From contig CANQSZ010000001.1 in the NCBI GenBank assembly GCA_947626645.1, positions 1-47,067 on the forward strand: a DNA stretch of 47,067 bases, read 5' to 3'. Position numbers and translations under genes: made by a program. Below are positions 225 to 40,020 of this stretch, piece after piece. The stretch comes from Candidatus Gastranaerophilales bacterium. Lineage in GTDB: Bacteria; Cyanobacteriota; Vampirovibrionia; Gastranaerophilales; Gastranaerophilaceae. Numbering within the stretch: the stretch's first letter is position 1; every line of letters starts with the position of its first letter. Under the pieces are notes generated by a model. That model did not search any database. It was not told the origin of the DNA and worked only from the letters and a program-made list of their open reading frames with translations.

Positions 225-749
225 TTAACTTTTTCTTAAAAAAGTCAAAAATTTGTCGCCGTATTTTTTTTGTTTAATTACCTCAAATCCGCTAAAATCA
301 ACATCAATAACATGTTCCAAAATTACAACATCGAAAGACAAATTTTTAATCGAGTCCAAACTTTTTTCATAAATCCCCGAAAAATAGGGCGGGTCAATGA
401 ATATAACATTAAATTTTTCATTAAGAGTTTTGCAAATTTTTAAGCTGTCACCCGCTAAAAGCCTGATGTTACAATATTTTTCAAATTTTTTCAAATTGGA
501 TTTTGTAACATTAAAAACTTTTCTGTTATTTTCTATGGCAACGGCTTTTGAAAAACCTCTTGACAGAGCCTCAACAGACATAATACCGGAACCTGCAAAC
601 ATATCAAGAAAACTTGAACCGTCAAAATCAATCATAGCTTGCAAAGTATTAAAAACACTCATTCTTACTTTTGATAAAGTCGGACGGGTAATATTTTCAT
701 CCGGAGCCGTAATTTTCTGACCTTTGAATTTTCCTGACGTAATATTCAT
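225..749 (-). CDS. rsmD: 16S rRNA (guanine966-N2)-methyltransferase RsmD
   Basis: 174 aa. Has RPTLSKVRMSVFN, the SAM-binding LDMFAGSGIMSVEALSRG, and the DPPY catalytic motif typical of RsmD-family N-methylases. Confidence 0.85.
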   Translation of the reverse strand: MNITSGKFKGQKITAPDENITRPTLSKVRMSVFNTLQAMIDFDGSSFLDMFAGSGIMSVEALSRGFSKAVAIENNRKVFNVTKSNLKKFEKYCNIRLLAGDSLKICKTLNEKFNVIFIDPPYFSGIYEKSLDSIKNLSFDVVILEHVIDVDFSGFEVIKQKKYGDKFLTFLRKS

Positions 750-770
750 GGTTATAATTTAACATAAAAA

Positions 771-791
771 GACCCGAAAAGCATTCGGGTC
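771..791 (-). terminator. Rho-independent terminator downstream of tpiA (bidirectional shape)
   Basis: GACCCGAA-aagca-TTCGGGTC, a perfect 8-bp stem flanked by an A-run (766-770) and a T-run (792-795). Confidence 0.6.
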
Positions 792-819
792 TTTTGTTCG
801 ACTGTCAATCAAAATTTTA

Positions 820-1620
820 TTAAGATGCAACGGCAACTTTCATAGTTTTTTCAATAATTTCATTGAAACTGTCGGCTTTTAAAGAAGCACCGCCGATTAA
901 AGCGCCGTCAATGTCTGATTTTGACATTTGTTCTTCGATGGTTGAAGGTTTAACCGAACCGCCGTACAAAATTCTGATAGAATCAGCGGCATTAGCACCC
1001 GCAACTTCCGATACAACACTTCTAATCATTTTGATAACTCTGTTAGCTTCGTCAGCATCGCAAGATTTTCCTGTTCCGATTGCCCAGATAGGTTCATAGG
1101 CGATAACCGATTTTGCAACATCTTCTGATGAAATACCGTCTAAAGCTGCTCTGATTTGGGAAGCGATATGAGAATCGGTAATACCCTGTTCTCTTTGTTC
1201 TAATGTTTCACCGCAGCAGATAATAGGTATTAAACCGCCCGCTAAAATTGCTTTTGCTTTTTTGTTAATCATTTCATCGGTTTCGGAAAAATACTGTCTT
1301 CTTTCGGAGTGTCCGATAATAACAAAAGAACAACCCGCATCTTTAAGCATTTCAACGGAAATTTCACCCGTGTAAGCACCCGAAGATTCCCAATGACAAT
1401 TTTGTGCGGCAACATAGAGTTTATTTCCGCCGCATCCGCATGAACAAGGAATTTCCGATACCTGATTTAATGATGTAAATACCGGCGCAATAACTACCGT
1501 CGGCAATTGAGGTGCCGTATAATTTGATACAAATGATTTAATCCCTTCATACAACGCTTTTGCATCGCTTTGTACAAGGTTCATTTTCCAGTTTCCTGCA
1601 ATAATTGGTTTTCTTGACAT
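820..1620 (-). CDS. tpiA: Triosephosphate isomerase
   Basis: 266 aa. Has IIAGNWKMN, AAQNCHW..SGAYTGEIS, IIGHSERR, AYEPIWAIGTG and LYGGSV, which are canonical TIM motifs. A short Cys-rich insert (PCSCGCGGN) precedes the AAQN motif. Confidence 0.95.
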   Translation of the reverse strand: MSRKPIIAGNWKMNLVQSDAKALYEGIKSFVSNYTAPQLPTVVIAPVFTSLNQVSEIPCSCGCGGNKLYVAAQNCHWESSGAYTGEISVEMLKDAGCSFVIIGHSERRQYFSETDEMINKKAKAILAGGLIPIICCGETLEQREQGITDSHIASQIRAALDGISSEDVAKSVIAYEPIWAIGTGKSCDADEANRVIKMIRSVVSEVAGANAADSIRILYGGSVKPSTIEEQMSKSDIDGALIGGASLKADSFNEIIEKTMKVAVAS

Positions 1621-1759
1621 AATATAATCTCCTTTTTTTACCTCGTTTCAAGTGAAATTCTATTACAAATACGGATTTTGTTCAAGAAAATATTTATCCG
1701 CCGAATATTTCAATTATAACTATTTCAAAAACAATAGAAATGATGTTATAATATCTGAT

Positions 1760-4700
1760 ATGTTCACGATAAACGAAGACGATATCACCTCAAATTACGA
1801 AATTTTCAGAACAAAAATAAAAGACGGCAACTCCTTTGCCGTAACAGGTTTAACCTCTGTTCTCAGACTTTTTCTGTTGTCTAAAATTAAAACTTATTCA
1901 AAGAAAAAAGTTCTTTTTGTAACATCAACGGAGCAAAACGCACTCAAATACCAAAGTGATTTAACTTCCGTTTTCGGCTTAAAATCATCGGTTATGCCGT
2001 TTCAAAACATTTCCATGTACGAAACAATCCCGCAAAATTTGTACGACTATTCCGAACAACTGGAAATTTTAAATTCAAAACCCGATATTGTAATTTGTCC
2101 GGTGAAATCTCTTTTGGAAAAATTTCCGAACGAAGATTTTTTCAAAAAAAACAGCCTTAAAATAAAAATCGGCGATACGATAGATTTAAAAGACCTTTCC
2201 CGAAAACTTACCGATTTGGGATACAAAAAATCCACTATGGTATCTGATATATCAGAGTTTAGTATCAGAGGCGACATCGCAGATATTTATTCACTCAACC
2301 CCAAACCCGTAAGAATTGAGCTTTGGGGCGATGAAGTCGTTGATATAAGATATTTTGACAATCAAACCCAAAAATCCGTTGAAAAAGCAACCCAAACAAC
2401 CATTTTACCCGTTTACAAATTTATTACCGCAGGACAGGAAGATACCGTTAAAAAAATTCAGCAAAATTTAATCGATATTGATAATGAAATTCCCGAAGAA
2501 AACTACTTTGAAGGGATTGAAGTTTATCAAAACTTTTTCAACAAAAACCTTGTATCCGTTTTGGATTATTTTGAAGATTATATTCTTGTTTTGGATGAAA
2601 CTGCCGAAATTTATTCAAAATACGAATTTTTGGATGACGGTTTCAACAAAGAACTTGAAGAAAATACCAAGTTGGATTTAATTAAAGAAACAAAAGGAAA
2701 AAACCATTACACCTACGAGGAATTTTTACGCAAAACAACCTATTTTCAAAAAATCGGATTTAACAATTTCATCGACGGAAGTACAAATGATTTAATCGAA
2801 TTTAATGCTCAGCCGTTGAGAAATTTTGAGGCAAATATTGATTTAATCACCGAATTTATTAACGAACATAAAGGCTACAAAATAATTATAGCAACCGATT
2901 ACCCCGAAAGAGTAAAAGAAATTCTTTCCGAAAAGGAAATTTTCAATGTTGAATACTCCGAAAGTATTGTACATTGCGGATGTATCTTGGAAGATTTCAA
3001 AACAATCATAATCACCGACCGAGAGCTTTTCAACAAGCGTTCAAAAGAAATAACGGCTTCAAAAAAATCATACTTCAAGGAAAAGCCCGAATATATCGAA
3101 AATATTAACGATATAAAACCGGGAGAGTATGTTGTGCATACAATACACGGTTTGGGGATATATAAAGGGCTTTCAAAACAGGAAATAGACGGGCAATTAA
3201 AAGATTATTTAACGATAGAATACGCAAACAAAGACAAATTACACATTCCGGCGGAGCAAATAAACCTGCTTTGCCGATACAGAGGCTCCGGAACCGTCAG
3301 ACCGAAACTTTCAAGAATGGGCGGCAAAGATTGGGAAAGCACGAAAGCAAAAGTTAAAAAAGCGGTTGAAGTTGTCGCCTACGACTTGTTAAGACTTTAT
3401 GCAAGACGTAAAATGCAACAAGGAATTGCCTTTTTGCCTGATACAACTTGGCAAATCGAAATGGAAGAAGCGTTTGAATTTGTTGAAACTCCCGACCAAT
3501 TAAAAGCAATTTCGCAGGTGAAAAACGATATGGAATCCGAACAACCGATGGATAGGCTGATTTGCGGGGATGTAGGTTTTGGAAAAACGGAAGTTGCAAT
3601 GCGGGCAATATTTAAAGCCATTACATCGGGAAAACAAGCCGCCGTGATTGTTCCGACAACAATTCTTGCTTTGCAGCACTATCAAACCATGAGCGAAAGA
3701 TTTAAGCCTTTCGGGGTCGGAGTTGAGCTTTTATCAAGATTTAGAACAACTAAAGAGCAAAAAGAAACAATCAAAAACCTTGCAATCGGAAAATGTGATT
3801 TGGTAATAGGTACACACAGACTTTTACAAGACGGTATTGTTTTTAAAGATTTAGGGTTGCTTGTTATTGATGAGGAGCATCGTTTCGGGGTTCGGCACAA
3901 GGAAAAAATCAAACAATTGAGAGAAAATATTGATATACTTTCCATGTCGGCAACACCAATTCCCAGAACATTATATATGTCGCTATCGGGAATTAAAGAC
4001 ATGTCCGTAATCAACACTCCGCCTCAAAACCGCCTGCCGATAAAAACTTTTGTCGGCGAATGGAATGAAACCATGGTTAAAAATGCCATAAACCACGAAA
4101 TTGACAGAGAAGGACAGATTTTTTATCTTTATAACAGGGTTGAAACCATACAGGAATTTAAAAACCAATTGCAAAAAATAGTTCCTAACGCACGAATTGC
4201 AGTCGGGCATGGTCAAATGGACGAAAAAACATTGGAAAATGTAATTGTTGACTTTGCAAATCACGAATATGACGTACTGTTAGCCACAACAATTATTGAA
4301 AACGGTATTGATATTCCGAATGCAAACACAATGATAATCCACGATTCGGACAGGTTCGGACTTGCGCAGTTGTACCAGTTAAGAGGAAGGGTCGGACGTT
4401 CTCAAAGGCAGGCATACTGTTACTGTTTCTACAAAAAAAGTAAAGAAATTTCAAAAGATGCGGTTGACAGATTGAAAGCTATAAAAGAATTTACAACCTT
4501 AGGCAGCGGTTATCAAATTGCATTAAGAGATATTGAAATAAGAGGGGTCGGGAATATTCTGGGTACAAAGCAGCACGGACACATGGTAAACGTCGGGTTT
4601 GACACGTATTGTGAACTTTTGGAAGAAACCGTACAAGAATTACAGGGGGAAAAAATTCAAAAAACAATTCCGACGATTGTTGATATAAATGTTACGGCGT

Positions 4701-5143
4701 ATATCCCGGATGATTGGGTAGGTTCTTCGGAGCAAAAAATGATTGAATATAAGCGATTAGCCGATGTAAAATCTTCCGTTGAACTGGATTATATTGTTGA
4801 GGAGTGGAAAGACCGATTTGCAAAACCGCCTGAGTGTGTTGAAAATTTGATAAAATTAATTCGTTTACGGCTTTGTGCAACCGAAATCAGAATTTCCGCC
4901 ATAAGAGAATCCGGAAACTGTTTGAGAATTTACACCCCCTATTCAAAACCCGAATGGAATATTATTCAAAAGGTTTTACCGTTAAATCTTTCAAAAAAAA
5001 TCAAATTTACTCAAGCCCCGAATACTTGTCAGGAAGGTTGTTCTATCTTGATTTTAGACATTTCTTATGTAAATTTTGATGAAGTAGTTAACATTTTGAC
5101 AGATTTGTTTTATTATATACATAAAGTCAGTCACGAGTATTAA
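1760..5143 (+). CDS. mfd: Transcription-repair coupling factor Mfd
   Basis: The ORF is open from GTG 1652; I prefer ATG 1760 (MFTINEDD). It has a UvrB-like N-terminal region, a CarD-like segment (GEYVVHTIHGLGIY), an SF2 helicase core (GDVGFGKTEVAMRA, DEEHRFGV, SATPIPRT, QLRGRVGR) and a TRCF C-terminal domain. Confidence 0.93.
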   Translation: MFTINEDDITSNYEIFRTKIKDGNSFAVTGLTSVLRLFLLSKIKTYSKKKVLFVTSTEQNALKYQSDLTSVFGLKSSVMPFQNISMYETIPQNLYDYSEQLEILNSKPDIVICPVKSLLEKFPNEDFFKKNSLKIKIGDTIDLKDLSRKLTDLGYKKSTMVSDISEFSIRGDIADIYSLNPKPVRIELWGDEVVDIRYFDNQTQKSVEKATQTTILPVYKFITAGQEDTVKKIQQNLIDIDNEIPEENYFEGIEVYQNFFNKNLVSVLDYFEDYILVLDETAEIYSKYEFLDDGFNKELEENTKLDLIKETKGKNHYTYEEFLRKTTYFQKIGFNNFIDGSTNDLIEFNAQPLRNFEANIDLITEFINEHKGYKIIIATDYPERVKEILSEKEIFNVEYSESIVHCGCILEDFKTIIITDRELFNKRSKEITASKKSYFKEKPEYIENINDIKPGEYVVHTIHGLGIYKGLSKQEIDGQLKDYLTIEYANKDKLHIPAEQINLLCRYRGSGTVRPKLSRMGGKDWESTKAKVKKAVEVVAYDLLRLYARRKMQQGIAFLPDTTWQIEMEEAFEFVETPDQLKAISQVKNDMESEQPMDRLICGDVGFGKTEVAMRAIFKAITSGKQAAVIVPTTILALQHYQTMSERFKPFGVGVELLSRFRTTKEQKETIKNLAIGKCDLVIGTHRLLQDGIVFKDLGLLVIDEEHRFGVRHKEKIKQLRENIDILSMSATPIPRTLYMSLSGIKDMSVINTPPQNRLPIKTFVGEWNETMVKNAINHEIDREGQIFYLYNRVETIQEFKNQLQKIVPNARIAVGHGQMDEKTLENVIVDFANHEYDVLLATTIIENGIDIPNANTMIIHDSDRFGLAQLYQLRGRVGRSQRQAYCYCFYKKSKEISKDAVDRLKAIKEFTTLGSGYQIALRDIEIRGVGNILGTKQHGHMVNVGFDTYCELLEETVQELQGEKIQKTIPTIVDINVTAYIPDDWVGSSEQKMIEYKRLADVKSSVELDYIVEEWKDRFAKPPECVENLIKLIRLRLCATEIRISAIRESGNCLRIYTPYSKPEWNIIQKVLPLNLSKKIKFTQAPNTCQEGCSILILDISYVNFDEVVNILTDLFYYIHKVSHEY

Positions 5144-5160
5144 AAAAAGAGGGAGAAAAA

Positions 5161-6300
5161 ATGAACGGAAAAAAAATAATTACGACATTAATGTTATCGA
5201 CATTATTGTTTAGCGGTTGCGGTGTAAAAAACAATTACATCATAAAAGTTAACGACGGCGGAGTAACAATGAAAGAGTACAATCAAATGATGGATAAGGC
5301 AATTGCCCAAGCTCCGTATGCAAAAATGGGATTAGGTGATTTAAAAGGAAACAAAGACGGTTTTCTTTACCTTATGACAGAACAAAGAGTAATAAATCAG
5401 TTGATTATTCAAGAGTTGTTGGAACAAGAGGCTCAAGCAAGAGAAATCAAAGTTACCAACCAAGAAGTTGACGAGGCGGTAAAAGAATTAATCGACAAAA
5501 TGGGCGGAAAAGACTTGTTAACAAAGACTTTAAGACAAAACGGCGTTTCCGTTGCCGATTTTAAAAAAGATGTAAAAAATCAGGTAAAAATGGAAAAATT
5601 AGCTAACGCTTACGGAAAAATTAACATCACCGACAACGATTGCAAAAAATATTACACAAAAAATCCTGACAAATTTAAACATGGCAATCAGGTAAGAGCA
5701 TCTCACATCTTGATTTCCGCTAATCCTTACCAAATTCAAGAGGAATTGAAAGCTAACTCAAAAAATAAATTAACCGATGAACAAATAAAAGCCGAAGTTG
5801 AAAAAGTAATGGCCGATAAAAAAGCCGAGGCTGAAAAACTTGCAAACGAATTGAAAGCAGACAATTCAAAATTTGCACAGTATGCAAAAAAATACTCGGA
5901 TGATGAAGGCTCAGCGGTACGAGGCGGGGACTTAGGATTTTTTGCAAAGGATAAAATGGTTCCCGAGTTTGCAAATGCGGCATTTAGCGCAAAACCAAAC
6001 ACCGTAACCGACCCCGTTAAATCACAATTCGGATATCATATCATTATGGTTACGGACAGACGTGAAGCGGGTATCGTTCCTTATGAAAAAGTTAAAAACG
6101 ATATCAAAGACTTTTTAACAAGCGAAAAACAAATCGTTGCTCTTGACGAAATTATCCAAGCCGCAAAGAAAAAATCAAAAATTGAATACCTTGATGAAAG
6201 ATACAATCCTGATGTAATAGGCGACAAACTTCACAAACAGGTAAATGACGCTACTAACGGCGCGGCTGACAAAGTTAAAAATCAAAAAAATAAAAAATAA
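5161..6300 (+). CDS. Parvulin-type peptidyl-prolyl isomerase lipoprotein (PrsA/SurA-like)
   Basis: 379 aa. Lipobox LLFSGC near the N-terminus. PpiC/parvulin core (VRASHILI ... GGDLGFF ... FGYHIIMV). RBS GAGGGAG lies upstream. Confidence 0.8.
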   Translation: MNGKKIITTLMLSTLLFSGCGVKNNYIIKVNDGGVTMKEYNQMMDKAIAQAPYAKMGLGDLKGNKDGFLYLMTEQRVINQLIIQELLEQEAQAREIKVTNQEVDEAVKELIDKMGGKDLLTKTLRQNGVSVADFKKDVKNQVKMEKLANAYGKINITDNDCKKYYTKNPDKFKHGNQVRASHILISANPYQIQEELKANSKNKLTDEQIKAEVEKVMADKKAEAEKLANELKADNSKFAQYAKKYSDDEGSAVRGGDLGFFAKDKMVPEFANAAFSAKPNTVTDPVKSQFGYHIIMVTDRREAGIVPYEKVKNDIKDFLTSEKQIVALDEIIQAAKKKSKIEYLDERYNPDVIGDKLHKQVNDATNGAADKVKNQKNKK

Positions 6301-6318
6301 ATTTCTTTTTAATATAAA

Positions 6319-6346
6319 GACCTTCCAAAATCGGAAGGTCTTTTAT
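6319..6346 (+). terminator. Rho-independent terminator after the PPIase gene
   Basis: GACCTTCC-aaaatc-GGAAGGTC (6319-6340) followed by TTTTATT. Confidence 0.65.
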
Positions 6347-6405
6347 TGAAAAAAATCATACAAATGTTTTATTATTTATTTAATAACCTTTGGTATAATT
6401 ATCTT

Positions 6406-7620
6406 ATGTTTGATTTAACGTCTCCAACTGTATATATTCCGACAACATTTATAATTTTGGTTGCAATTTTTGTATCGATACTTCAAAAAGATGCAAAAAA
6501 ACTTGTACACGAAAACACCAAAGACTTGCCGTATTACGGTGAAATTAAGTTGTCTATGAATTACATAAACAACGCCGTTTTAGACGACGGAAGATTTCAA
6601 TACAGAAAGAATGTTTCATCAGACATTACCTACGACAACAACGTATATAATTCCCTAAGACATGCCGGAACATTGTATTCAATGTATATGTATGAAAAAC
6701 TGGGTTTGGAAAATAAATTTCACGAATCAAGAATCAAAGCCTCAAAATACTTTGTACAACGGTACATCAAAAAAATCGGCAGAGGCAAATATGCCGTAAT
6801 TTCAATCCCCGAAGAAGAAGGATTTAACTTTAAGATAGCAAAATCAGGAGCCGCAGGGGTTGCATTGTGTGCTTTATCAAATCTTTATAAAGAAGGTGAA
6901 ATCGAACTTGAAATACTGCAAGGTTTGGGTGAGTTTATACTGTCATTACAAGACAGAGAAGGCAACGTTTACGCATATTACGATATGGAAAATAAAACCA
7001 TAGACAAAGATGCCGAAGCGGTATTTTACCCCGGGGAAGCGGCAGCGGGGCTTTTGTATCTGTATGAAGCAGATCCTCAGCAAAAATGGATTGACGGCGC
7101 TAAAAAAACTCTTTCATACCTTGCAAAAAACAGAAAAAAAATGGACATGGATATACCGTTTGACAATTGGTCTGTTTTAGCGATAGAAAAACTCTTTGCA
7201 CAAAACCTTCTGACCCCCGAAGAAACCAACACCTATAGAGCCTACGCGGAGCAAATGGCAATCCCGATGTTAAGCAACCAAATTACCAATTCCAAAAACA
7301 GCTATTTCGGTGCGTTTAAAGACAATATTCGCCCTTGCAGCTTGGGAACAATTATGGAAGGGCTTTGCTCGATATATTTTTGTACCGACAATAAACAACT
7401 AAGAGAAATAATATTCAAATCGCTTTCCATCGGCTGCATATTTTTAAGCAAAGTACAGGTAAAAACGGGAGAACAAGCAGGCGGTCTGCCAAATTCGGCA
7501 AACTGGGTTAAAGCCGGTGTCACACCGAATGCAAGCGTTATAAGAATTGACAACGTTCAACACGTTGCAACAGGTTGGTTAAAATTCCAAAATATACTTA
7601 AAATTACGGGGAATTACTAA
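6406..7620 (+). CDS. Hypothetical membrane-anchored protein (possible alpha/alpha-toroid fold)
   Basis: The ORF is open from TTG 6346, which sits inside the upstream terminator. ATG 6406 is followed by one TM helix (PTVYIPTTFIILVAIFVSILQ). Repeated helical G/A-rich segments (SGAAGVALCAL, YPGEAAAGLLYLY) recall alpha/alpha-barrel enzymes, but I recognise no family. Confidence 0.55.
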   Translation: MFDLTSPTVYIPTTFIILVAIFVSILQKDAKKLVHENTKDLPYYGEIKLSMNYINNAVLDDGRFQYRKNVSSDITYDNNVYNSLRHAGTLYSMYMYEKLGLENKFHESRIKASKYFVQRYIKKIGRGKYAVISIPEEEGFNFKIAKSGAAGVALCALSNLYKEGEIELEILQGLGEFILSLQDREGNVYAYYDMENKTIDKDAEAVFYPGEAAAGLLYLYEADPQQKWIDGAKKTLSYLAKNRKKMDMDIPFDNWSVLAIEKLFAQNLLTPEETNTYRAYAEQMAIPMLSNQITNSKNSYFGAFKDNIRPCSLGTIMEGLCSIYFCTDNKQLREIIFKSLSIGCIFLSKVQVKTGEQAGGLPNSANWVKAGVTPNASVIRIDNVQHVATGWLKFQNILKITGNY

Positions 7621-8273
7621 TTACCGCAAACCGTTTTATTTCTTCCGGAATTTTTCGCCTCATACAGAGCCATATCCGTTCTTTCCAGTAATTGTTCTTT
7701 CGTTTTAATTTCGTCGGTCAGTTGGTATGCGCCGATACTAACGGTGATGTGCAATTTTTCCCGTTGATATTCAAGAAAGAGCGTATCTATTGTCTTTCTA
7801 AACCTTTCTAAAGGGATAACGGCTTGGTTGATATCGGTTTCGGTCAAGATTACAATAAATTCTTCTCCCCCAAATCTATAAACGGTATCTGTTTTTCTGA
7901 AAGTTTGCAACGCGGCATTTGATACCTGTTTTAAAACATAATCACCGCATTGATGACCGTATTTGTCGTTAAATTGTTTAAAATAGTCTATATCAAACAT
8001 TACGAGCGTTAATTTGTTGTTATAACGCTTTGCCCTTAAAAATTCCTTTTCAAAATCGTTTTCAAAACTTCTTCTGTTGGGCAATCGGGTTAATTCGTCG
8101 GTCAAGGACAGGTATTTTGTTCTTGAATACATAAAATTAATCTGTCTTATAACTTCCATTTTATTTTCTTCGGGAATATCGAAGGTGTTGATTACATGCT
8201 CGATATTGTGTTGAATTTCGTCCAACACAGTTTCGGGAATATCAAAAGACATATCATCAGAATTATTAACCAT
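7617..8273 (-). CDS. Diguanylate cyclase (GGDEF domain protein)
   Basis: 218 aa. Has DELTRLPNRR, the DIDYFKQFNDKYGHQCGD Mg/GTP site, the active-site motif RFGGEEF, and ALYEAKNSGRN. Confidence 0.85.
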   Translation of the reverse strand: MVNNSDDMSFDIPETVLDEIQHNIEHVINTFDIPEENKMEVIRQINFMYSRTKYLSLTDELTRLPNRRSFENDFEKEFLRAKRYNNKLTLVMFDIDYFKQFNDKYGHQCGDYVLKQVSNAALQTFRKTDTVYRFGGEEFIVILTETDINQAVIPLERFRKTIDTLFLEYQREKLHITVSIGAYQLTDEIKTKEQLLERTDMALYEAKNSGRNKTVCGN

Positions 8274-8333
8274 ACTCTCCTCTAAAGTTATTTTACCATA
8301 AAATCTTACTGTATAAAAGTATTTACGGCAAAA

Positions 8334-9911
8334 TTAATTTGCGGGATTTTTGTCGTTTTTAAACAGGAATAATAACGGAATTAAGAAGAAACATAAAATT
8401 CCGAAAATTCTGAAAGAATCAGTGAAAGCCCAAAGAGTGGATTGTTTCAAAAGAGTTCCGTATTGAGAATATTCCGCCATGTGCTTAGCGACCGAAATAT
8501 TTGTATATTGAGATAAAGCCGCCGTTGTTGCCTGAACTCTTTCAACAAAAGCCGGATTTAATTCGGTGAGCTTACCGACCATCATATACTGGTGCATTTG
8601 AGAAAATCTTGTTAACATTGTTGCAACAAGCGACGTTCCTATTGCACTTCCGATATTTTTAAACAAATTCTGCAACCCGGCGGCATTGGTCATTTGTGTA
8701 TTTGAAAGCGTTTCCATAGACAGATTTATAATAGGAACAAACGACATGCCCATGCCAAATCCCATAATGCAGTTAGGAATCATAATATTTAACGGAGCAA
8801 TCTGCAAATTCAAAAATCCGAAAAACAATCCCGCAACCCCGATACAAAGCAATCCGAAAATAACAAGTATTCTTTTATCGACCTTGTCGGCAATAAAAGC
8901 ACAAACAATGGTTGCCGATAAACTTCCGATACCGCGGGGCATCATGGACAAACCGCTTAAAAACGCCGTATATCCCATCATGCTTTGCAAAAATTGCGGC
9001 AAGATTGCAACCGATGCGTACAAAACCGCCATCATAACAACTTGGATAAATGTTCCCATTACAAATTCTTTGTTTTTAAATACGCTTAAATCAACTAAAG
9101 TTTCACCTTTACGTAATTGTGATAAGAAAAAGCAAATTCCCGAAAAACAAGATATTGCAAAAATCCACCTTATCCATGTTGCATTAAACCAATCGGCGTT
9201 GTTACCTTTATCAAAAAATACCTGCAAGCAACACAACCACAATACCAAGAAGAAAAATCCTCTTTTGTCGAGTTTGACATTTTTTTGACGTCTTGAGTAT
9301 GGAGGATTAAACAGTAAATGTTTTGCCAAAATAGCAGCCACGCAGCCCATAGGAACATTTATGAAGAAAATCCAAGGCCAAGTCCAATTATCGGTAATCC
9401 AACCGCCCAAAACAGGACCTACAATCGGGGCAATAATTATACCCATACCGAAAATTGCCATAGCCGAACCGCGTTTTTCTTTCGGGAAACTTTCCATCAT
9501 AATCGCTTGCGACAACGGAACGATTCCGCCTCCGCCCGCGCCTTGCAAAACTCTGAATAACACCATTGCACCGAGCGATTTTGCCATTCCGCACAATAAC
9601 GATGCCAATGAAAATATTAATATGCTTAAGATATAGAAGTTTTTTCTTCCGAAAAGTTTGCTGAAATATCCGACAGACGGAATTACAATCCCAGAAGATA
9701 TTAAATAACTCGTTAAAATCCAAATACTTTCATCTCTTGTAGCCGAAAAGCTGCCCGCCATGTGCGGCAGGGCAACGTTGGCAATCGTTCCGTCCATTAC
9801 ATAAACGAATACTGCCAGCATTAGCGGGATACAACATATCCACGGATTTTTAGGAAGGTATTTTTCTTCATCTTCCGGAGTTATTACATTTTCTTCTATA
9901 TTTTCAGACAT
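8334..9911 (-). CDS. MFS drug efflux transporter, DHA2 (EmrB/QacA) family
   Basis: 525 aa, about 14 predicted TM segments. DHA2 signatures (DGTIANVALPHM, LFGRKN, LRVLQGAGGG). Directly downstream of a HlyD-family gene. Confidence 0.85.
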   Translation of the reverse strand: MSENIEENVITPEDEEKYLPKNPWICCIPLMLAVFVYVMDGTIANVALPHMAGSFSATRDESIWILTSYLISSGIVIPSVGYFSKLFGRKNFYILSILIFSLASLLCGMAKSLGAMVLFRVLQGAGGGGIVPLSQAIMMESFPKEKRGSAMAIFGMGIIIAPIVGPVLGGWITDNWTWPWIFFINVPMGCVAAILAKHLLFNPPYSRRQKNVKLDKRGFFFLVLWLCCLQVFFDKGNNADWFNATWIRWIFAISCFSGICFFLSQLRKGETLVDLSVFKNKEFVMGTFIQVVMMAVLYASVAILPQFLQSMMGYTAFLSGLSMMPRGIGSLSATIVCAFIADKVDKRILVIFGLLCIGVAGLFFGFLNLQIAPLNIMIPNCIMGFGMGMSFVPIINLSMETLSNTQMTNAAGLQNLFKNIGSAIGTSLVATMLTRFSQMHQYMMVGKLTELNPAFVERVQATTAALSQYTNISVAKHMAEYSQYGTLLKQSTLWAFTDSFRIFGILCFFLIPLLFLFKNDKNPAN

Positions 9912-34494: not shown

Positions 34495-36849
34495 CTAAAC
34501 GGCAAGAATTTGAGATAAATCGTCTTCCAACAGACTTTTTTGAAATTCTTCACATTCCAAAATTAAATCGAAAATTTGAGAATATTTTTCATTGTGCAAA
34601 ATTTTTGATAAATTATCAACTTTAAAAAATTCAATCGAATAAAAAGCACTGTTTTTGTCCTTAATTTTTAGAAATCCGCTTTCTTCAAAAAGGGTTAAGA
34701 GTTTTTCTACTATATTAACGGAAATTCCCAAAAATCCGGAACACTTGATTAAATCAAACTTTCCGTTGTTATTGTTGGCACAGAATTTGAGCATACCGCA
34801 GAAAGTTTTTAACAATTCCGATTCATCAAGACTTTTCGGCTCGTAATTCATAAAGTGCAGCCCTTTAGGTTGGGCGGTTTCAAGAATTTTATCAAGCGTT
34901 ACTCTGTCCGGCGGATAATCAAAAAACATAACGACATCACATTTGGGAACATCGTTGCGGGTAAAGGTTTTTGAGTAAATTTCGGGATAGGGTTTTATGG
35001 TATCTAAAATATACTTACTTTCCGCAAAAACTTTAATGTTTAATTTTGATGTTTTTATATAGTCGTTAACATTGGGCAAAATGCCTGTTTTAGAGCGATT
35101 GTCGTAGATTTTGTATAAACTTTGCCGCAAAGGTTCTTCATCAATCGCATCGGAATGGATATCGTTAACAACCAGTTGGAGCGTGGTTTCGCCGTTATAT
35201 TCGTTTATTTGAGGATGAAAAGCCAAATCGATGATGTCCCCTTGTTTAAGGTTAACATAACCTTTTTGCCACCATACGGCAGTAAATTCGTACCCGTCAG
35301 CTTGTAAAATCAGTTTCAGATGTGAATTATCGTTACCTAAAAGTATTTTTTGAATGACTTTAAGGTTATTTACGGCAAAAATCGGGGAAGGATTAGATGC
35401 GCCGAAGGGTTCAAGTTTTGCAATTATGTTAGGCAAATCAAATGTTATATCTGCGGGTTCAAGGATTAAATCAATTTTTATAAACGGGTTAAGGTCTTTT
35501 GATGAAGTGTATTCTTTTATAGTATCGCACAGGGCTTTTTTGACTGTTTCAAAAGATGTTTTCTCACCTGAGAAGAACAGACCGGCAGCCATTTTGTGCC
35601 CGCCAAAACCGTCAAAAAGTTCCGAGTTGGCACTGATTACATCATACAACCCCACTCCTTCAATACTTCTTGCCGAACAGCGATATTGGTTTTTTTCTTT
35701 TGAATACGACATTAAGAATACGGGTTTGTAGTATTTTTCAACGAGTTTTGAGGCGACAATACCGATAATTCCGATATGCCAGTTTTCATCATACAAAACG
35801 ATAGCGGGATAGCGGTTGCCTTCTTTTTGAACCATTTTGTCTGCCTGTTCAAAAATTTCCTGACAGAGAGTTTGGCGGACTAAGTTAAGTTCGTTCAGGG
35901 TTGTAATCGCCATTTGGACTTCTTGGGGATTGTCCGAGATGAGGACTTTTAGGGCGGCATCAACGGTGTCAAGCCTTCCTGAGGCATTGATTCTGGGTGC
36001 AACCCCGAAGGCAATATTTTCGGATGTAACCCCTTTTGATACGTTACATCCGGAACTTTCCAAAAGTTTTTTCAATCCTTCGTGTTTTCCTTTGGAAATT
36101 AAATCCAAACCTTTGGTAACAAAATATCTGTTTTCGCCTAAAAGCGGGACAATATCGGCAACGGTTCCGACAGCAACGAATGGGAGCAGCTCGTTTATGA
36201 GTTCGGTTTTTTCATATTTTGCCAAAAGAGCTTGAGCAACTTTGAATGCCACACCGCAGCCTGCCAAATATGTTAAATATTCTATTTGTTTTGCACAAAG
36301 GGTTTCGTTTAAAGCATTGGGGGCTTTTGGGTTAATTATTGCATAGGCATCGGGTAAGATGTCGGGTGCTTCGTGGTGGTCTGTTATAATGACGTCGATA
36401 ATTTTAAAACTGTTGATGAATTTAACCGCTTCGACATCGGAAATCCCGCAATCTACGGAGATGATGACTTTTGGTTTAACGGTTGTCATAAGTTTAATGA
36501 GTGCTTTGTTGTCAAACCCGTGACCTTCGTTTTCTCTGTCGGGAATGAAATAGTGGACATTTGCTTGAAGGTATTTGAGAGTTTTATACAGGATTGAGGT
36601 TGAGGTAACTCCGTCTGCATCAAAATCGCCGTAGATTACAATGGTTTCGTTGTTGTCGATGGCTGATTTGAGCCTTTCGACGGCTTTTTCCATGTCGTTA
36701 AAAACGTAAGGGGATGTAATTTCCATATCTAAAGGGTTAAGAAATTCGTTCATTTCCTGTTCGGTCTTAATCCCGCGAGATAGCAGTAATCTTTTTACCA
36801 ACGATTTTTCTGTTGTTTGAGTTGTATCAAAAATCCATTCTTTTTTCAT
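34495..36849 (-). CDS. recJ: Single-stranded-DNA-specific exonuclease RecJ
   Basis: About 784 aa from ATG 36849 (MKKEWIF). DHH motifs (IYGDFDADGVTS, VDCGIS, ITDHH), DHHA1 (GGHKMAAG), an OB-fold and an extended C-terminal domain. Confidence 0.9.
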   Translation of the reverse strand: MKKEWIFDTTQTTEKSLVKRLLLSRGIKTEQEMNEFLNPLDMEITSPYVFNDMEKAVERLKSAIDNNETIVIYGDFDADGVTSTSILYKTLKYLQANVHYFIPDRENEGHGFDNKALIKLMTTVKPKVIISVDCGISDVEAVKFINSFKIIDVIITDHHEAPDILPDAYAIINPKAPNALNETLCAKQIEYLTYLAGCGVAFKVAQALLAKYEKTELINELLPFVAVGTVADIVPLLGENRYFVTKGLDLISKGKHEGLKKLLESSGCNVSKGVTSENIAFGVAPRINASGRLDTVDAALKVLISDNPQEVQMAITTLNELNLVRQTLCQEIFEQADKMVQKEGNRYPAIVLYDENWHIGIIGIVASKLVEKYYKPVFLMSYSKEKNQYRCSARSIEGVGLYDVISANSELFDGFGGHKMAAGLFFSGEKTSFETVKKALCDTIKEYTSSKDLNPFIKIDLILEPADITFDLPNIIAKLEPFGASNPSPIFAVNNLKVIQKILLGNDNSHLKLILQADGYEFTAVWWQKGYVNLKQGDIIDLAFHPQINEYNGETTLQLVVNDIHSDAIDEEPLRQSLYKIYDNRSKTGILPNVNDYIKTSKLNIKVFAESKYILDTIKPYPEIYSKTFTRNDVPKCDVVMFFDYPPDRVTLDKILETAQPKGLHFMNYEPKSLDESELLKTFCGMLKFCANNNNGKFDLIKCSGFLGISVNIVEKLLTLFEESGFLKIKDKNSAFYSIEFFKVDNLSKILHNEKYSQIFDLILECEEFQKSLLEDDLSQILAV

Positions 36850-36979
36850 AATCCCAAGTCCTTTAAGAAAATAATAGCACATAATTGTTGCATATTAAAT
36901 TATGTAAATTTCTTTTTTATTTATAAAACATGGGCTAATATGATAGAGTGGGAAAAAATCACAAGGAGGAAAAGAAAAT

Positions 36980-37411
36980 ATGAAAAGATTACAAAAAACA
37001 ATATCAATAGCTATGTTAATAATAATGACGACAAGCACAATAGCAATGGCGGAGACGAAATTTACACCGTTGGAGTTTGACGATACGCAGACCCTAAATT
37101 CGACATCGACTACCTATGCAACATCACCGGCAGAACCGAAGGGAACCGATTTGTTGGCACCTGCACAGGTAACGGGCGGAACAAAGATGCAGAATGCTAT
37201 TTTGCAGATAGACAATGCACAGGTCGATGTAAGAAACAGATTGTTGCAGTACAATAACGAATATAACGAAGTAAATTCGAGATACAATTCTACGAAAGAA
37301 GAAAGAAAAGCTGCAAAAAGAAAAGTAAAATTGGCGGAAAAGAAGATAAAAAATTTGGAAAAAACGAAAAAACAGATACAGAAGAATTTTCAAAGAAAGA
37401 ATAATATCTAG
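36980..37411 (+). CDS. Secreted coiled-coil hypothetical protein
   Basis: 143 aa with an AAGGAGG RBS. Signal peptide MKRLQKTISIAMLIIMTTSTIAMA. Lys/Glu-rich helical C-terminus. Confidence 0.6.
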   Translation: MKRLQKTISIAMLIIMTTSTIAMAETKFTPLEFDDTQTLNSTSTTYATSPAEPKGTDLLAPAQVTGGTKMQNAILQIDNAQVDVRNRLLQYNNEYNEVNSRYNSTKEERKAAKRKVKLAEKKIKNLEKTKKQIQKNFQRKNNI

Positions 37412-37436
37412 TTGAAGATAAACAAAAACGGGAGAG

Positions 37437-37469
37437 AAGGACTGTTGATTTTTCGACAGTTCTTTTTTT
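37437..37469 (+). terminator. Probable intrinsic terminator
   Basis: Imperfect hairpin AGGACTGTTGA-tttt-TCGACAGTTCT followed by TTTTTTT. Confidence 0.5.
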
Positions 37470-37747
37470 AATAAACGAACTTGATTTTAAAAAATGTTTA
37501 TAGTAGATTAATTCATGCGAAGCCTATGGAAGCGAGCAAATGGCACTCTGCCGAGCGCAAGCGAGCTGAGGGCGGAAGGTCAAGGCGATGAGCCTTGCCT
37601 GAAGACCCGTTTAATGCGAGCGCAGCAAGACCGGAAAACGATTAAGTATCGTTTTCTGAGAGGCCTGATAAGGGTCTTAAATGCTCAAGAGTTGAAAAAA
37701 GAATATAGATGTGAGAGAATGCAAAAGAAAGCATTTTACACGAATAC

Positions 37748-37821
<74 letters not shown>

Positions 37822-37825
37822 TATT

Positions 37826-37883
37826 AAAAAAAAGACTCCGAAAGGGGTCTTTTTTTAATGATTGCAGTAGGACGAGAACCACA
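37826..37883 (+). repeat. Copy 1 of an approximately 57-bp direct repeat (terminator hairpin plus GCAGTAGGAC...GAACCACA tail)
   Basis: AAAAAAAAGACTCCGAAAGGGGTCTTTTTTTAATGATTGCAGTAGGACGAGAACCACA. Contains the tRNA terminator AGACTCC-GAAA-GGGGTCT (37833-37850) plus its T-run. Confidence 0.85.
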
Positions 37884-38023
37884 TTTGTGGTGGGTCGGCG
37901 GATTTGCGGACGGACGGAGCGGAGCGAGTCCGGATAGCGAGTGAATTGAGCCAACTGCGGCGAAGTCCGCAAAGGCGAAACTTCACGAGCACGGAGCAAA
38001 TCCAAGACAGCGCAAGCGAGCAT

Positions 38024-38078
38024 AAAAAAGACTCCGAAAGGGGTCTTTTTTAATATCAGCAGTAGGACAAGAACCACA
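38024..38078 (+). repeat. Copy 2 of the approximately 57-bp direct repeat; its hairpin (38029-38046) also serves as terminator for the minus-strand TA genes
   Basis: AAAAAAGACTCCGAAAGGGGTCTTTTTTAATATCAGCAGTAGGACAAGAACCACA. Roughly 50 of 57 positions are identical to copy 1. Confidence 0.85.
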
Positions 38079-38085
38079 ATATTTA

Positions 38086-38439
38086 CTAAGCTGATTTTAA
38101 TTGTATTTTATAGCCTAAGCCATTTATGAGTTTTAGTGTTGTGCTGATTTTAGGTTGAACTTTACCGTTTAAAATATCTGATAAATTACCTCTATCCATT
38201 TTTAATTCACGTGCAAGAGAAGAAATTGCTCCGCGTCCGCGAGCTTTTACGACATATTGCAGAGAACGAATAAAAGCATCGATGTTACCGTCTTTTGCAA
38301 ATTCTTCCAATGATGTTTCTAAGTAAACCCTTTGATAATCTTTATCTTGTAAATGTTTTTGCATTAAATCATCATGACTGACAGTATCAGACATAACTTT
38401 ATCCATATCTAAATTTAATTTTTCTGAAGAATTTTTCAT
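38086..38439 (-). CDS. HigA-family addiction-module antidote protein (HTH), with no adjacent killer gene
   Basis: 117 aa. YLETSLEEF..DGNIDAFIRSLQYVVKARGRGAISSLARELKMDRGNLSDILNGKVQPKISTTLKLINGLGYKIQL matches the COG3636-type antidote pattern. Confidence 0.7.
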   Translation of the reverse strand: MKNSSEKLNLDMDKVMSDTVSHDDLMQKHLQDKDYQRVYLETSLEEFAKDGNIDAFIRSLQYVVKARGRGAISSLARELKMDRGNLSDILNGKVQPKISTTLKLINGLGYKIQLKSA

Positions 38440-38494
38440 TTTTATATTATTTGTTTTAGGCGTTCATTTTTCGACATAAATATTACCTGATTAT

Positions 38495-38522
38495 ATTGTA
38501 GGGTATAACCGACAAAAGTCAA
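38495..38522 (-). promoter_or_regulatory. Sigma70-like promoter for the higA-like gene
   Basis: Minus strand reads TTGACT (38517-38522), 16-nt spacer, TACAAT (38495-38500). It lies in the 110-nt gap after the hipA stop. Confidence 0.45.
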
Positions 38523-38549
38523 GGTGTTGAATTTTATAATTTCTAAATA

Positions 38550-39788
38550 CTAAAATTCTTTTAATAATTTAGTACAATTCTTTTGCACAACGGATAAAAT
38601 ATCTTTTCCTATGTTATTTTCAAAACTGTTTATAACAATATTTACAATACTTGGAAGAATTTCGCACTGATTTTTTATAACTTTTTTTAGTTGAGTAAAG
38701 CTGATATCATTTTCGTTTGCTAATTTTTCAAAGTGTCTTAATAAAATCTCATTGTGTTTATAATGCCCGCCGATTTTCATAGCCATTTTATTTGACAATT
38801 CAGGATATACTTGAGAACAAAGAATATCGTATGCCGGTGCAAATCTTATTTTAGAGGTGTCATAATGCAGAATAGAAAAATTCTTGCCATGAGCATCATT
38901 ATTTCCGATTAAGTAGTTGAAAATCATTAGTTGAATAAATTGACTAATTGCAACAGCAGGTTGAGATGTCATTCTTAAAATTTCAAAACATCTTTTATAA
39001 TCAACGCCTCCTTCTGCTTGGTATTTGTATGCGCTTGAAATATCGGATGCCTGACAAAAATCTTCCTGATGAATTCTTTTTATTTTGTTATCAATTATTG
39101 TTCTGTCGTATCTTTGAATTAACAAGTATTTTGTTTTATTAGCATACCCGATTTTGAAATCAGGCACATTGATTCCTAACCCTTGAGCTGATTTTAAGCA
39201 TATAAATTCATTTTCAATTGTTTCATTAAATCCGTTTATTGCAGGTTTTAAGATATGACTTGTAGGCACATTATTTTTTGGAAGTCCAATTTGTCCGTTT
39301 ACAACAATTACGGAAGTTTTGTCCTGTGCACCGGCTAAAGATAATCGCATATCTTCAAACCCCGTTGCTAATGGTTTTTGAGGAAGTTCATTTATAAGTT
39401 TTTCAAGTTCGTTTTCCGATAATGGCGTATAATTTATTTGATAAGTTTCTTGCAAGTATTTTGAAGGTGTTTGTTTATCCCCGTTGTCAAAAAATGAAAC
39501 AGCACCTGCGCAATCATAACCTATTGCTTGCAGCATTGAAAAATCATTTTTAGAATTAATTCCGTATTTTTTCCCGATAGCAATTCTTGTATGTTCGCTC
39601 TCGGGTAATAAACCGTTAAAAAACCCTTTGCATTGCCTGTTGTCAAAAGGTTCTTTTTGAATGGGCAAACTTAAAGACAAGATTCTGTCGGTATTGTCAG
39701 AATATTGAAAAATCATGCCGCCATTACCGTCTTTTTCTAATGTTCCGATATATTTATCATTCAAAAATACGTTCAATGAATTACTCAA
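38550..39788 (-). CDS. hipA: HipA-family Ser/Thr kinase toxin
   Basis: 412 aa. HipA N-terminal coupling domain (LNVFLNDKYIGTLEKDGNGGMIFQYS), SLAGAQDKTSV, and the catalytic loop GNNDAHGKNFSIL followed by APAYD. Confidence 0.9.
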   Translation of the reverse strand: MSNSLNVFLNDKYIGTLEKDGNGGMIFQYSDNTDRILSLSLPIQKEPFDNRQCKGFFNGLLPESEHTRIAIGKKYGINSKNDFSMLQAIGYDCAGAVSFFDNGDKQTPSKYLQETYQINYTPLSENELEKLINELPQKPLATGFEDMRLSLAGAQDKTSVIVVNGQIGLPKNNVPTSHILKPAINGFNETIENEFICLKSAQGLGINVPDFKIGYANKTKYLLIQRYDRTIIDNKIKRIHQEDFCQASDISSAYKYQAEGGVDYKRCFEILRMTSQPAVAISQFIQLMIFNYLIGNNDAHGKNFSILHYDTSKIRFAPAYDILCSQVYPELSNKMAMKIGGHYKHNEILLRHFEKLANENDISFTQLKKVIKNQCEILPSIVNIVINSFENNIGKDILSVVQKNCTKLLKEF

Positions 39789-40020
39789 TATCTACCCCAC
39801 TACTTTTATCAAAACCGGACTTCATATCTATTATGATACCTAAAGCGTTGCAAACATCTATAACTTTTCCGATTTGAGCGGTTTTTTTGCCGTTTTCCAA
39901 ATCAACAAGAAACCTTATTCCAACATTAGCTGCAATTGCCAAGTCAGCTTGCGTAAGATGCTGGGCTTTGCGCATTTTTTTTACATAATCTCCTAATTTT
40001 TTAGTATTTGAAATGTTCAT
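39781..40020 (-). CDS. hipB: HipB-like XRE-family antitoxin
   Basis: 79 aa. HTH LTQADLAIAANVGIRFLVDLENGKKTAQIGKV. Its 3' end overlaps the hipA start by 8 nt. Confidence 0.8.
   Translation of the reverse strand: MNISNTKKLGDYVKKMRKAQHLTQADLAIAANVGIRFLVDLENGKKTAQIGKVIDVCNALGIIIDMKSGFDKSSGVDIE

Follow-up and report, generated by a model that had tools for sequence, protein, structure and literature searches.

A GC-rich stretch 5' of a melainabacterial tRNA-Ile gene, read as a layered, partly tRNA-derived insertion

What is the GC-rich, hairpin-forming stretch of DNA that directly precedes the tRNA-Ile(GAT) gene of a Candidatus Gastranaerophilales bacterium (Cyanobacteriota, Vampirovibrionia)? 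The sequence analysed here, called the window below, comprises 47,067 nt (positions 1-47,067, forward strand, of contig CANQSZ010000001.1 in assembly GCA_947626645.1), and the stretch in question lies at 37515-37747. In a first-pass annotation, made from the letters alone, it was described as a structured non-coding element that carries a copy of the anticodon arm of the adjacent tRNA, and was regarded as a decayed or expanded tRNA-Ile copy, as an attachment site (att)-type scar of an integration at the anticodon loop, or as a tRNA-mimicking RNA. The present analysis partly confirms the observation and partly supports its interpretation. Rather than a separate RNA gene, the stretch probably represents a composite, lineage-specific insertion within the 5' leader of tRNA-Ile(GAT). 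Its outer layer would be the 3' two-thirds of a partial tandem tRNA-Ile duplicate, whose tRNA 5' half has been deleted in the window, and its inner layer would be a 78-nt mobile palindrome, referred to as the G element, that was inserted within a module of the duplicate designated X. The notion of a decayed tRNA-Ile copy thus suits the outer part, where homologous units keep the tRNA-Ile 5' half, but not the GC-rich core, which is a separate nested mobile element.

The features that had drawn attention to the stretch are real. Its G+C content is 53.7% at 37521-37680 versus 34.9% in the whole window, and among 2346 sliding windows of 160 nt only the region of the tRNA and of a GC-rich partner downstream of it exceeds this value. 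Both the element and the downstream partner fold better than shuffled controls, with z-scores of -4.3 and -4.1, respectively. The helix CAAGGC/GCCTTG (37581-37597), the 9-bp hairpin at 37634-37656, and the exact 12-mer CCTGATAAGGGT at 37664-37675, which recurs in the tRNA at 37779-37790 (repeat D19), all exist as described, and a word of at least 12 nt common to the element and the tRNA occurred in 0.04% of 5000 shuffles (p ~4e-4). One could regard these features as coincidental, or assign the region to a small protein encoded by the stop-free 80-aa open reading frame (ORF) that spans it (37515-37757). However, neither this ORF, already judged not credible in the first-pass annotation, nor a 107-aa ORF has a Pfam match, and the former runs into the tRNA gene. 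Moreover, G elements are stop-free in the frames used inside ORFs in either orientation, and two copies share a reading frame only in the 5' arm. The low probability of the 12-mer and the existence of homologs speak against chance. Both readings are regarded as excluded in view of the homology and covariation reported below.

An insertion between promoter and tRNA

The melainabacterial and other loci used for comparison amounted to ~1.1 Mb in total and included no complete melainabacterial genome. The tRNA-Ile gene (37748-37821, plus strand; Rfam tRNA model, 63.6 bits) is the only tRNA gene that ARAGORN and Rfam detect in the window. Together with the block at 37464-37521 it aligns to ~30 syntenic loci. 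This block contains the promoter-like sequence of tRNA-Ile (37481-37509, plus strand), which reads TTGATT, 17 nt, TAGATT in the window and TAGATT or TACATT in its second box across the loci, shares 80-95% identity with ~30 related genomes, and may act as a promoter judging from its consensus. Nothing in the ~30 syntenic sister loci aligns to 37522-37742. The distance between promoter and tRNA is 47-97 nt in 28 relatives versus 267 nt in the window, and the comparison of these loci therefore shows the element to be an insertion into the tRNA leader that is absent from most sister genomes. The distribution is patchy, with a unit of the kind described below in ~8-10 of ~33 syntenic sister genomes.

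The sequence at 37510-37542 (plus strand; with AGCGAG at 37531-37536) is a putative leader remnant. Its first bases (TTCATGCGAA) match the native leader of the relatives, and no homolog was found for the rest; it is in this region that the window has lost the tRNA 5' half of intact units. Directly 5' of the tRNA, the leader hairpin ATGC-AAAAGAAA-GCAT (37719-37734, plus strand) has an equivalent, (A)TGC..GCATTT, in homologous units as well as in the plain leaders of relatives. A related strain (L001, Logan contig DRR849014_13196) is 95.6% identical over its last 160 nt. This contig ends at the position corresponding to 37571, inside the 5' arm of the G element, as would be expected if the element is repeated in that genome.

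The outer layer and the origin of the anticodon-loop 12-mer

Intact homologs of the outer layer occur in related genomes and metagenomes. In L026, two tandem units are located between the same promoter and (presumably) its tRNA. The order within the unit is GGGCTGCTAGCTCAGGTGGTTAGAGCA (tRNA-Ile positions 1-26), CTCTGCCGA, a hairpin bounded by an A run and a T run, GAGAGG, CCTGATAAGGGT, and CTCAAATGC. A metagenome scan for GCACTCTGCCG..CCTGATAAGGG retrieved 37 loci, and 27 nt of the tRNA-Ile 5' half followed by the core and the 12-mer were found in L026 and in 24 metagenomic units. U-type units lie between the promoter and the intact tRNA-Ile, and their spacer contains a second, often strong promoter box of the TTGACA/TTGAAA type. 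D-type units follow the tRNA-Ile terminator and have a tRNA-like 5' part with an enlarged D-loop. Tandem arrays of two units with a period of ~140-145 nt exist in L026, L151, L154, L174, and L179. The core hardly varies among units, and compensatory changes are numerous in the hairpin (columns 50/82, for instance, read GC 12, AU 9, UA 2, and CG 1).

If positions 37555-37632 are left out, the window aligns end to end with U-type units over 37541-37747, from GCACTCTGCCGA through the first tRNA base, with 83% mean column identity. A covariance model of the units (R2) matches 37630-37690 with 42.6 bits (E=2.5e-8); only the 5' half and the anticodon loop are common to the units and tRNA-Ile. Since the window aligns with units that retain contiguous tRNA-Ile sequence in the same order, the 12-mer has been inherited from tRNA-Ile. 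Judged by this alignment, the window copy is a U-type unit that lost the tRNA 5' half, and the 12-mer is present by descent. The unit is a tRNA-derived partial duplicate and neither a functional tRNA nor a recognizable tRNA pseudogene: ARAGORN and the Rfam tRNA model detect only 37748-37821 in the window, and no tRNA is called in intact units either (L022, L046, L149, and others).

In the window, the unit (all parts on the plus strand) begins with its 5' conserved block GCACTCTGCCGA at 37543-37554, which shows no variation among 27 of the 29 units of alignment A1 or in any row of alignment A4. The block includes the final bases of the D-stem 3' strand, and the D-arm remnant identified by homology is the GCA of GGCACTCTGCC at 37543-37545. 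GAGCGCA at 37618-37624, which had been taken for a D-stem relic, is present but is part of the GCGAGC motif of the G element. Downstream of the latter, the X hairpin GAAAACGAT-TAAGT-ATCGTTTTC with its closing pairs (37633-37657) is found in all units. It is followed at 37658-37675 by GAGAGG and the 12-mer, which are invariant across units retaining the tRNA 5' half. The "Type 1" tail CTTAAATGCTC (37676-37686) aligns with CTCAAATGCTC in units of L026, L150, L151, L158, L167, and L174; in single-sequence folds it pairs with GAGGCC and GAGCA, and this pairing is invariant. A helix between AAGACCC (37602-37608) and GGGTCTT (37672-37678) had been thought to enclose the structure. Both strands exist, but they come from separate elements: GGGTCTT is part of the outer unit, and AAGACCC lies in the nested G element and uses its CCC to pair with GGG at 37570-37572. 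An internal promoter-like site at 37692-37720 (TTGAAA, 17 nt, (TG)GAGAAT) was the sole sigma-70-like site returned by a scan of 37350-38150 and may be functional; its TTGAMA box is kept in homologous units.

The X module, CTCTGCCGA-hairpin-GAGAGG, comprises ~40 nt and is also found in copies of other tRNAs. In L005 (7800-8070) and L028 (7850-8070), both read on the reverse complement, X is located in the D-loop of a partial 5' duplicate of tRNA-Ala(GGC). This duplicate covers the leader and first 27 nt of that tRNA and precedes the intact gene, so that the layout is leader, GGGGCGTTAGC, A, X, GGTAGCGCAC, and then the leader and the intact tRNA-Ala. L152 (317-524) has X in antisense orientation within the T-loop of a partial copy of tRNA-Glu(CTC) that represents a 3' duplicate. 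X is therefore not specific to tRNA-Ile and, on the evidence of these sites, is itself an insertion element. Of the ~9 non-Ile tRNA genes that the melainabacterial loci happened to cover, 4 or 5 (Ala-GGC, Leu-TAG, Met, and Glu) adjoin a partial duplicate that carries X or G. With about half of the sampled non-Ile tRNAs accompanied in this way, a regular process may operate at tRNA loci. L149 (5283-5400) contains a third type of unit, in which tRNA-Ile positions 1-17 are followed by an X-related insert of ~85 nt in the D-loop, termed Y, that is closed by ACCTGAG, complementary to CTCAGGT.

Larger elements also occur at this tRNA. L175 contains an island of ~7.6 kb (610-8340) that encodes a 531-aa large serine recombinase and a 228-aa resolvase. 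The island is inserted exactly at the tRNA-Ile 3' end (after ..GCGGCCCA), and the recombinase ORF enters the tRNA gene on the opposite strand. Further downstream in L175 comes a stack of three distinct terminator variants, together with a G element and a D-type unit.

Could the duplicate then be an att-type scar? According to this scenario, an element recombined with tRNA-Ile at the anticodon loop or D-arm and brought along its own promoter and tRNA 5' half; the cargo was later lost, and the displaced native 5' part was left fused to element DNA. Partial tRNA genes that result from integration are common in prokaryotes (PMC9897764; Williams 2002 as cited there), and the tRNA-Ile locus is an integration hot spot, as indicated by the recombinase island next to the tRNA 3' end and the stacked, differing terminators in L175, and by an island in L163 that ends in a partial tRNA-Ile 3' copy. 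The tandem two-unit arrays would fit as well. As in attL and attR partial tRNA genes (PMC9897764), a partial tRNA copy is found here beside the intact gene at a demonstrated integration locus. However, the duplicate precedes the tRNA on its 5' side and comes with a promoter and leader of its own, a palindromic insert lies inside the partial copy, and 3'-side duplicates include the terminator and ~25 nt beyond. No integrase or island separates the copies, no recombinase is encoded among the neighbours of the window tRNA, and in >20 contigs no cargo is located between unit and tRNA. In addition, a simple anticodon-loop exchange would not place X where it is found, between the tRNA 5' half and the supposed crossover core; the hairpin alleles are always palindromic and never hybrid; and the analogous tRNA-Ala unit ends in the D-arm. 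An att-type scar at the anticodon loop, one of the origins initially proposed, is thus very improbable, with an ancient and since decayed event as a remote possibility.

The inner layer and its relatives in Melainabacteria and phages

The nested G element (37555-37632, plus strand; 78 nt and hence a multiple of three) is inserted into X directly after ..GCCGA, and its apical hairpin is the CAAGGC/GCCTTG helix. The window copy is recognized by nhmmer (E=5e-17) and by a covariance model of the family (R1; 66.5 bits, E=7e-15, with the window copy itself in the seed alignment). The predicted fold is a long irregular hairpin. In the alignment, 95.6% of the cells are paired versus 80.7% in shuffles, double-change cells number 26 versus 7, and none of 500 shuffles reaches the observed value; slid controls pair at 29-40%. 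The hairpin has conserved internal loops and one invariant G.U pair, and the structure is therefore assigned to the sense strand. The GCGAGC segments of the two arms form G-C, C-G, G.A, A.G, G-C, and C-G, with Watson-Crick replacements in some copies. Because these segments face each other on both arms, similar hexamers recur in the region. Instead of the six (A/G)GCGAG sites reported earlier, there are five RGCGAG on the plus strand within 37531-38020, and the sixth site is TGCGAG (37615-37620). With eight RGCGAG in the whole window the count is not above expectation, and it is their clustering that stands out.

In host DNA, related copies are linked to tRNA genes. A copy at a different position in L010 is 86% identical to the window copy over 72 nt, and the apical hairpin is near-identical in the window, L010, and the phage contig L185, at three unrelated sites; the sequence of the closing helix differs between copies. 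G elements lie downstream of tRNA-Ile in L006, L007, L010, and L176, after tRNA-Leu in L149, and after tRNA-Met in L156; a copy in L011 has no nearby tRNA. Where a tRNA adjoins, G is located in the T-loop (between ..TTCGA and the T-stem 3' strand) of a partial 3' copy of this tRNA, and a second copy of the tRNA's terminator follows. The duplicated terminator was observed around the G elements of L010, L176, L149, and L156. Such host copies derive from tRNA-Ile, tRNA-Leu, tRNA-Met, and one further tRNA of unassigned type, and G also occurs at sites other than tRNAs.

The sequence upstream of these G elements takes the form R-GAGAA-(T-stem 3' strand). It is present in the window at 37865-37883 and 38060-38078 and also in L149, L156, and L189. 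The motif is the complement of the T-stem 5' strand plus UUC in the copy that follows, and it varies with the tRNA: Ile has GAACCAC/GTGGTTC, Leu has GAATTCC/GGAGTTC, and Met has GAACT/AGTTC.

G elements are shared with viruses. A viral scan identified them in contigs of tailed phages, where model R1 finds 2-3 copies per short contig in both orientations; in 76 unrelated viral loci R1 detects no G at E below 0.1. In phages, a copy either lies within an ORF or fits closely into the gap from a stop codon to the ribosome-binding site that follows. The Mu-like prophages L188 and L192 share 98.5% identity, and three precise G insertions are present in L188 and absent from L192. The first (504-563, 60 nt) is in the portal gene. 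The second (1027-1101, 75 nt, reversed) and the third (2182-2256, 75 nt) lie near the start and at the end, respectively, of one C5 DNA methyltransferase gene. All three are in frame, multiples of three, and stop-free, including the reversed one. The resulting 20-aa insert in the portal protein is absent from 10 of 11 homologs, one of which is 97% identical. At the sequence level, the comparison of L188 and L192 shows that G is mobile. No target-site duplication was found at these three clean sites.

Among known systems, the Rickettsia palindromic elements (RPE; PMC1779305) are the closest parallel to the behaviour of G. Both are short, multi-copy palindromes without ORFs that reside in intergenic spacers and, in frame, within genes (here for a portal protein and a DNA methyltransferase), from which close homologs lack them, and G differs in presence between near-identical genomes. 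G departs from RPE in its smaller size (60-100 nt), in its occurrence in Melainabacteria and in Mu-like and other tailed phages, and in the conserved internal loops, the invariant G.U pair, and the recurrence in T-loops of partial tRNA copies. No sequence resemblance to RPE was noticed, although no dedicated comparison was made. G also resembles miniature inverted-repeat transposable elements (MITEs) and repetitive extragenic palindromes (REPs) or the hairpins formed by REP pairs (REPINs) in being small, non-autonomous, hairpin-forming, free of ORFs, and present in more than one copy in either orientation. However, a MITE assignment does not fit, as the closing helix of G varies in sequence, so that structure is kept and not a transposase-binding inverted repeat, and the three clean sites lack target-site duplications. 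Likewise, no partner transposase or REP-associated tyrosine transposase (RAYT) gene was seen, and in contrast to both groups the density of G in host DNA is low and tied to tRNA genes. GC-rich mobile hairpins that may enter coding sequence are also found in the AT-rich genomes of mitochondria, namely the GC clusters of yeasts and the "byp" elements of Magnusiomyces, which are skipped by ribosomes. By contrast, the G copies within ORFs are stop-free multiples of three, and nothing in their sequence would require bypassing.

The GC-rich partner downstream of the tRNA (37884-38021, plus strand) may belong to a sister subfamily of G. Terminator-like hairpin 1 (37827-37856, plus strand; inverted repeat I14 followed by a T run) was not called by a simple terminator scan; it is conserved 3' of tRNA-Ile in several relatives. 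It is followed by the T-arm-like motif CAGTAGGACGAGAACCACA (37865-37883, plus strand), which precedes G-type elements after tRNAs and recurs in relatives: AGTRGACGAGAASCAC follows the tRNA-Ile terminators of L006, L007, L010, L017, and L176, and tRNA-specific variants exist after tRNA-Leu and tRNA-Met. A second copy of the terminator and the CAGTAGGACAAGAACCACA motif at 38023-38078 (plus strand) constitutes a 56-nt direct repeat of 37828-37883 with 89% identity. The partner thus sits between two copies of a 56-nt block (terminator plus CAGTAGGACRAGAACCACA), where G elements sit after tRNAs elsewhere. It has a G-family frame with a different, two-hairpin interior. Its closing helix joins GGATTTGC (37900-37907) to GCAAATCC (37996-38003) and is followed by AAGACA (38004-38009); the 5' arm is GCGGATTT.., and the 3' arm, ..AAATCC, is the one that precedes this AAGACA. 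The termini GCGGATTT..AATCCAAGAC and the two-hairpin fold are common to insertions in L002, L018, and L065.

Still further variation exists on this side of the tRNA. A conserved block that begins with TAATAGGTTTCTGGGACATTGAGAC was observed downstream of tRNA-Ile in L002, L008, L012, L017-L020, and L065. It abuts different sequences in each genome (in L008 it directly follows CTCTGCCGAG of a D-type unit), contains G-family insertions in only part of the genomes, and probably represents the end of a larger integrated element. In the window, the genes at 38086-40020 (minus strand) code for a 117-aa HI1420-type/helix-turn-helix (HTH) antidote-like protein, a HipA kinase (412 aa), and a 79-aa HTH protein (HipB-like). 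Only the region of the 117-aa gene has weak matches, in three of the loci retrieved via RecJ (L017, L019, and L031). No match to HipA/HipB and the genes beyond was found in the short sister-genome stretches compared downstream of tRNA-Ile, and the region to the right of the tRNA looks variable from these comparisons. On the other side, the RecJ gene (34495-36882, minus strand) is located just upstream of the element, and its closest relatives (75-77% identity) are encoded by Gastranaerophilales/Melainabacteria genomes from gut metagenomes. The neighbourhood of the tRNA comprises RecJ, a 143-aa protein of unknown family, HigA-like and HipBA modules, and glycosyltransferases.

Selfish DNA or functional RNA

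The proposed composite insertion would be built as follows. In other Melainabacteria, an intact unit consists of its own promoter and leader, tRNA positions 1-26, X (~40 nt), CCTGATAAGGGT, a short tail, a second promoter, and the intact tRNA. X (CTCTGCCGA, a variable hairpin, and GAGAGG) replaces the 5' strand of the anticodon stem. G, which is probably a small selfish DNA without ORFs that is common to Melainabacteria and (Mu-like) phages, would then have inserted within X. Stop-free lengths in multiples of three may let G persist in frame inside genes, and its repeated presence in the loops of redundant partial tRNA copies might have either of two causes: insertions in an essential tRNA may survive only in a redundant copy, or the insertion process itself may generate the duplicate. 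In the window, transcription from the upstream promoter would yield a structured leader of ~235 nt to be removed by RNase P, and the internal promoter could drive the tRNA directly. Because the window copy is truncated and interrupted, it is thought to have no function of its own.

A different view is that the unit is a functional RNA derived from tRNA-Ile, such as a mimic, a decoy, a regulator in the leader, or a small RNA, with the window copy as a damaged or variant member. The core and the anticodon-loop sequence might be bound by isoleucyl-tRNA synthetase, a modification enzyme, or an anticodon nuclease, or alternative folds might switch the output of tRNA-Ile. RNAs that are tRNA-like or mimic anticodon arms include the tRNA-like domain of transfer-messenger RNA, YrlA, the thrS operator, and the partners of T-boxes. 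Like these, intact units carry the acceptor 5' strand, the D-arm, and the anticodon-loop sequence of tRNA-Ile. However, they lack a T-arm, and with the 5' strand replaced no anticodon stem can form; they go undetected by ARAGORN and Rfam, no aminoacyl-tRNA synthetase (aaRS) gene follows, and the window copy is devoid of the tRNA 5' half.

Several findings nevertheless weigh against the interpretation as selfish DNA. The X core (GAGCACTCTGCCGA .. GAGAGGCCTGATAAGGG) is near-invariant across many lineages with very different RecJ, and its hairpin covaries, which would fit a functional RNA as well. Units lie on both sides of tRNA-Ile in distant lineages (L148/L164 and L149) and contain promoter-like boxes, and no Rfam family explains them. 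The D-type unit of L149 has a three-helix fold with z=-7.0 and promoter-like and terminator-like signals; in the predicted structure it is a candidate small RNA. Neither a transposase nor a target-site duplication nor a conserved terminal repeat was found for X or G. Finally, the downstream partner escapes model R1 at E<=1, and its placement in a sister subfamily of G, which its termini and position suggest, stands on weaker grounds.

The L149 unit (5560-5690; also in L148/L164 and L163) follows the tRNA-Ile terminator and folds into a three-helix junction, in which the anticodon-like strand CCCUGAUAAUGGUG pairs with the upstream complement CACCCUUAUCAGGG that contains the Ile codon AUC and then A.

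On the other hand, units are patchily distributed and often truncated, and the tails, the 5' parts, and the CCUGAUAAGGG pairing differ between unit types. X resides in partial tRNA-Ala and antisense tRNA-Glu copies that lack the Ile anticodon, and in the window it is split by the 78-nt insertion in a unit without tRNA 5' half. A functional tRNA-Ile-derived RNA is thus unlikely. The idea of a tRNA-mimicking RNA is not favoured for the truncated and interrupted window copy and is retained as a competing explanation for intact units elsewhere.

Database searches provided no other identity. When the window, L149, and L191 were compared to Rfam 15 at gathering thresholds and at E<=10, tRNAs alone were recognized and all other hits were at chance level; in the window only the tRNA reached the gathering score. 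A BLAST search of 37500-38085 against plasmid and phage collections matched only the tRNA. The viral scan yielded no match to the X-plus-12-mer pattern, and 76 matches to the 15-mer CTCTAAGTATTCAGT, none in the right context, are attributed to chance. Neither X nor G is described in the full-text literature searched.

Resemblances to other known structures were judged from the sequences themselves and rejected. GAYGAGAAC and ACA|GUCC are similar to the cores of hammerhead and hairpin ribozymes, but the loops needed are base-paired or key bases differ. Integron attC sites do not apply, as GTTWAAY fits R' in some copies only and has no R'' partner. The tandem G.A pairs recall a kink-turn, but they are replaced by Watson-Crick pairs in some copies and are not beside a 3-nt bulge. 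AGAGG and CCGUU motifs recall a T-box, but neither an Rfam match nor an aaRS gene was found. Retrovirus-like priming by a tRNA 3' end or any RNA-mediated origin conflicts with the extent of the duplicates, which run past the terminator and include promoters and are therefore copies made at the DNA level. A long target-site duplication does not fit either, as G lies inside the second repeat copy and not between the copies. Homing spacers of transposons associated with clustered regularly interspaced short palindromic repeats (CRISPR) were dismissed, as cas genes are absent and the repeats are too long. Group I introns of the cyanobacterial type in tRNA anticodon loops have at least 200 nt, but X has ~40 nt and G 60-100 nt, the host copies lack the T-arm or the 5' half, and no Rfam intron model matches.

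Partial tRNA duplicates and selfish palindromes within genes are known phenomena. The two families described here, their association with the loops of tRNAs, and the fact that Melainabacteria and Mu-like prophages have them in common were not encountered in Rfam or the literature searched. On a broader view, to which we assign a small chance, X and G belong to an undescribed class of small structured elements that colonises tRNA loops specifically (at 26/27, in the D-loop, and in the T-loop at 58/59), perhaps coupled to a partial tandem duplication that leaves an intact tRNA, and/or intact U- and D-type units work as tRNA-Ile mimics and are conserved throughout Melainabacteria; in that case, the window would contain a decayed instance of a widespread, hitherto unnoticed remodelling of tRNA loci. 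If the composite-insertion reading preferred here is right, an odd GC-rich "structured RNA" is explained as layered selfish DNA, which should prevent its annotation as an RNA gene or a small ORF. Melainabacteria would then harbour two element families outside Rfam, the RPE-like G, which also occurs in frame in phage structural and methyltransferase genes, and X, a palindromic insert associated with tRNAs.

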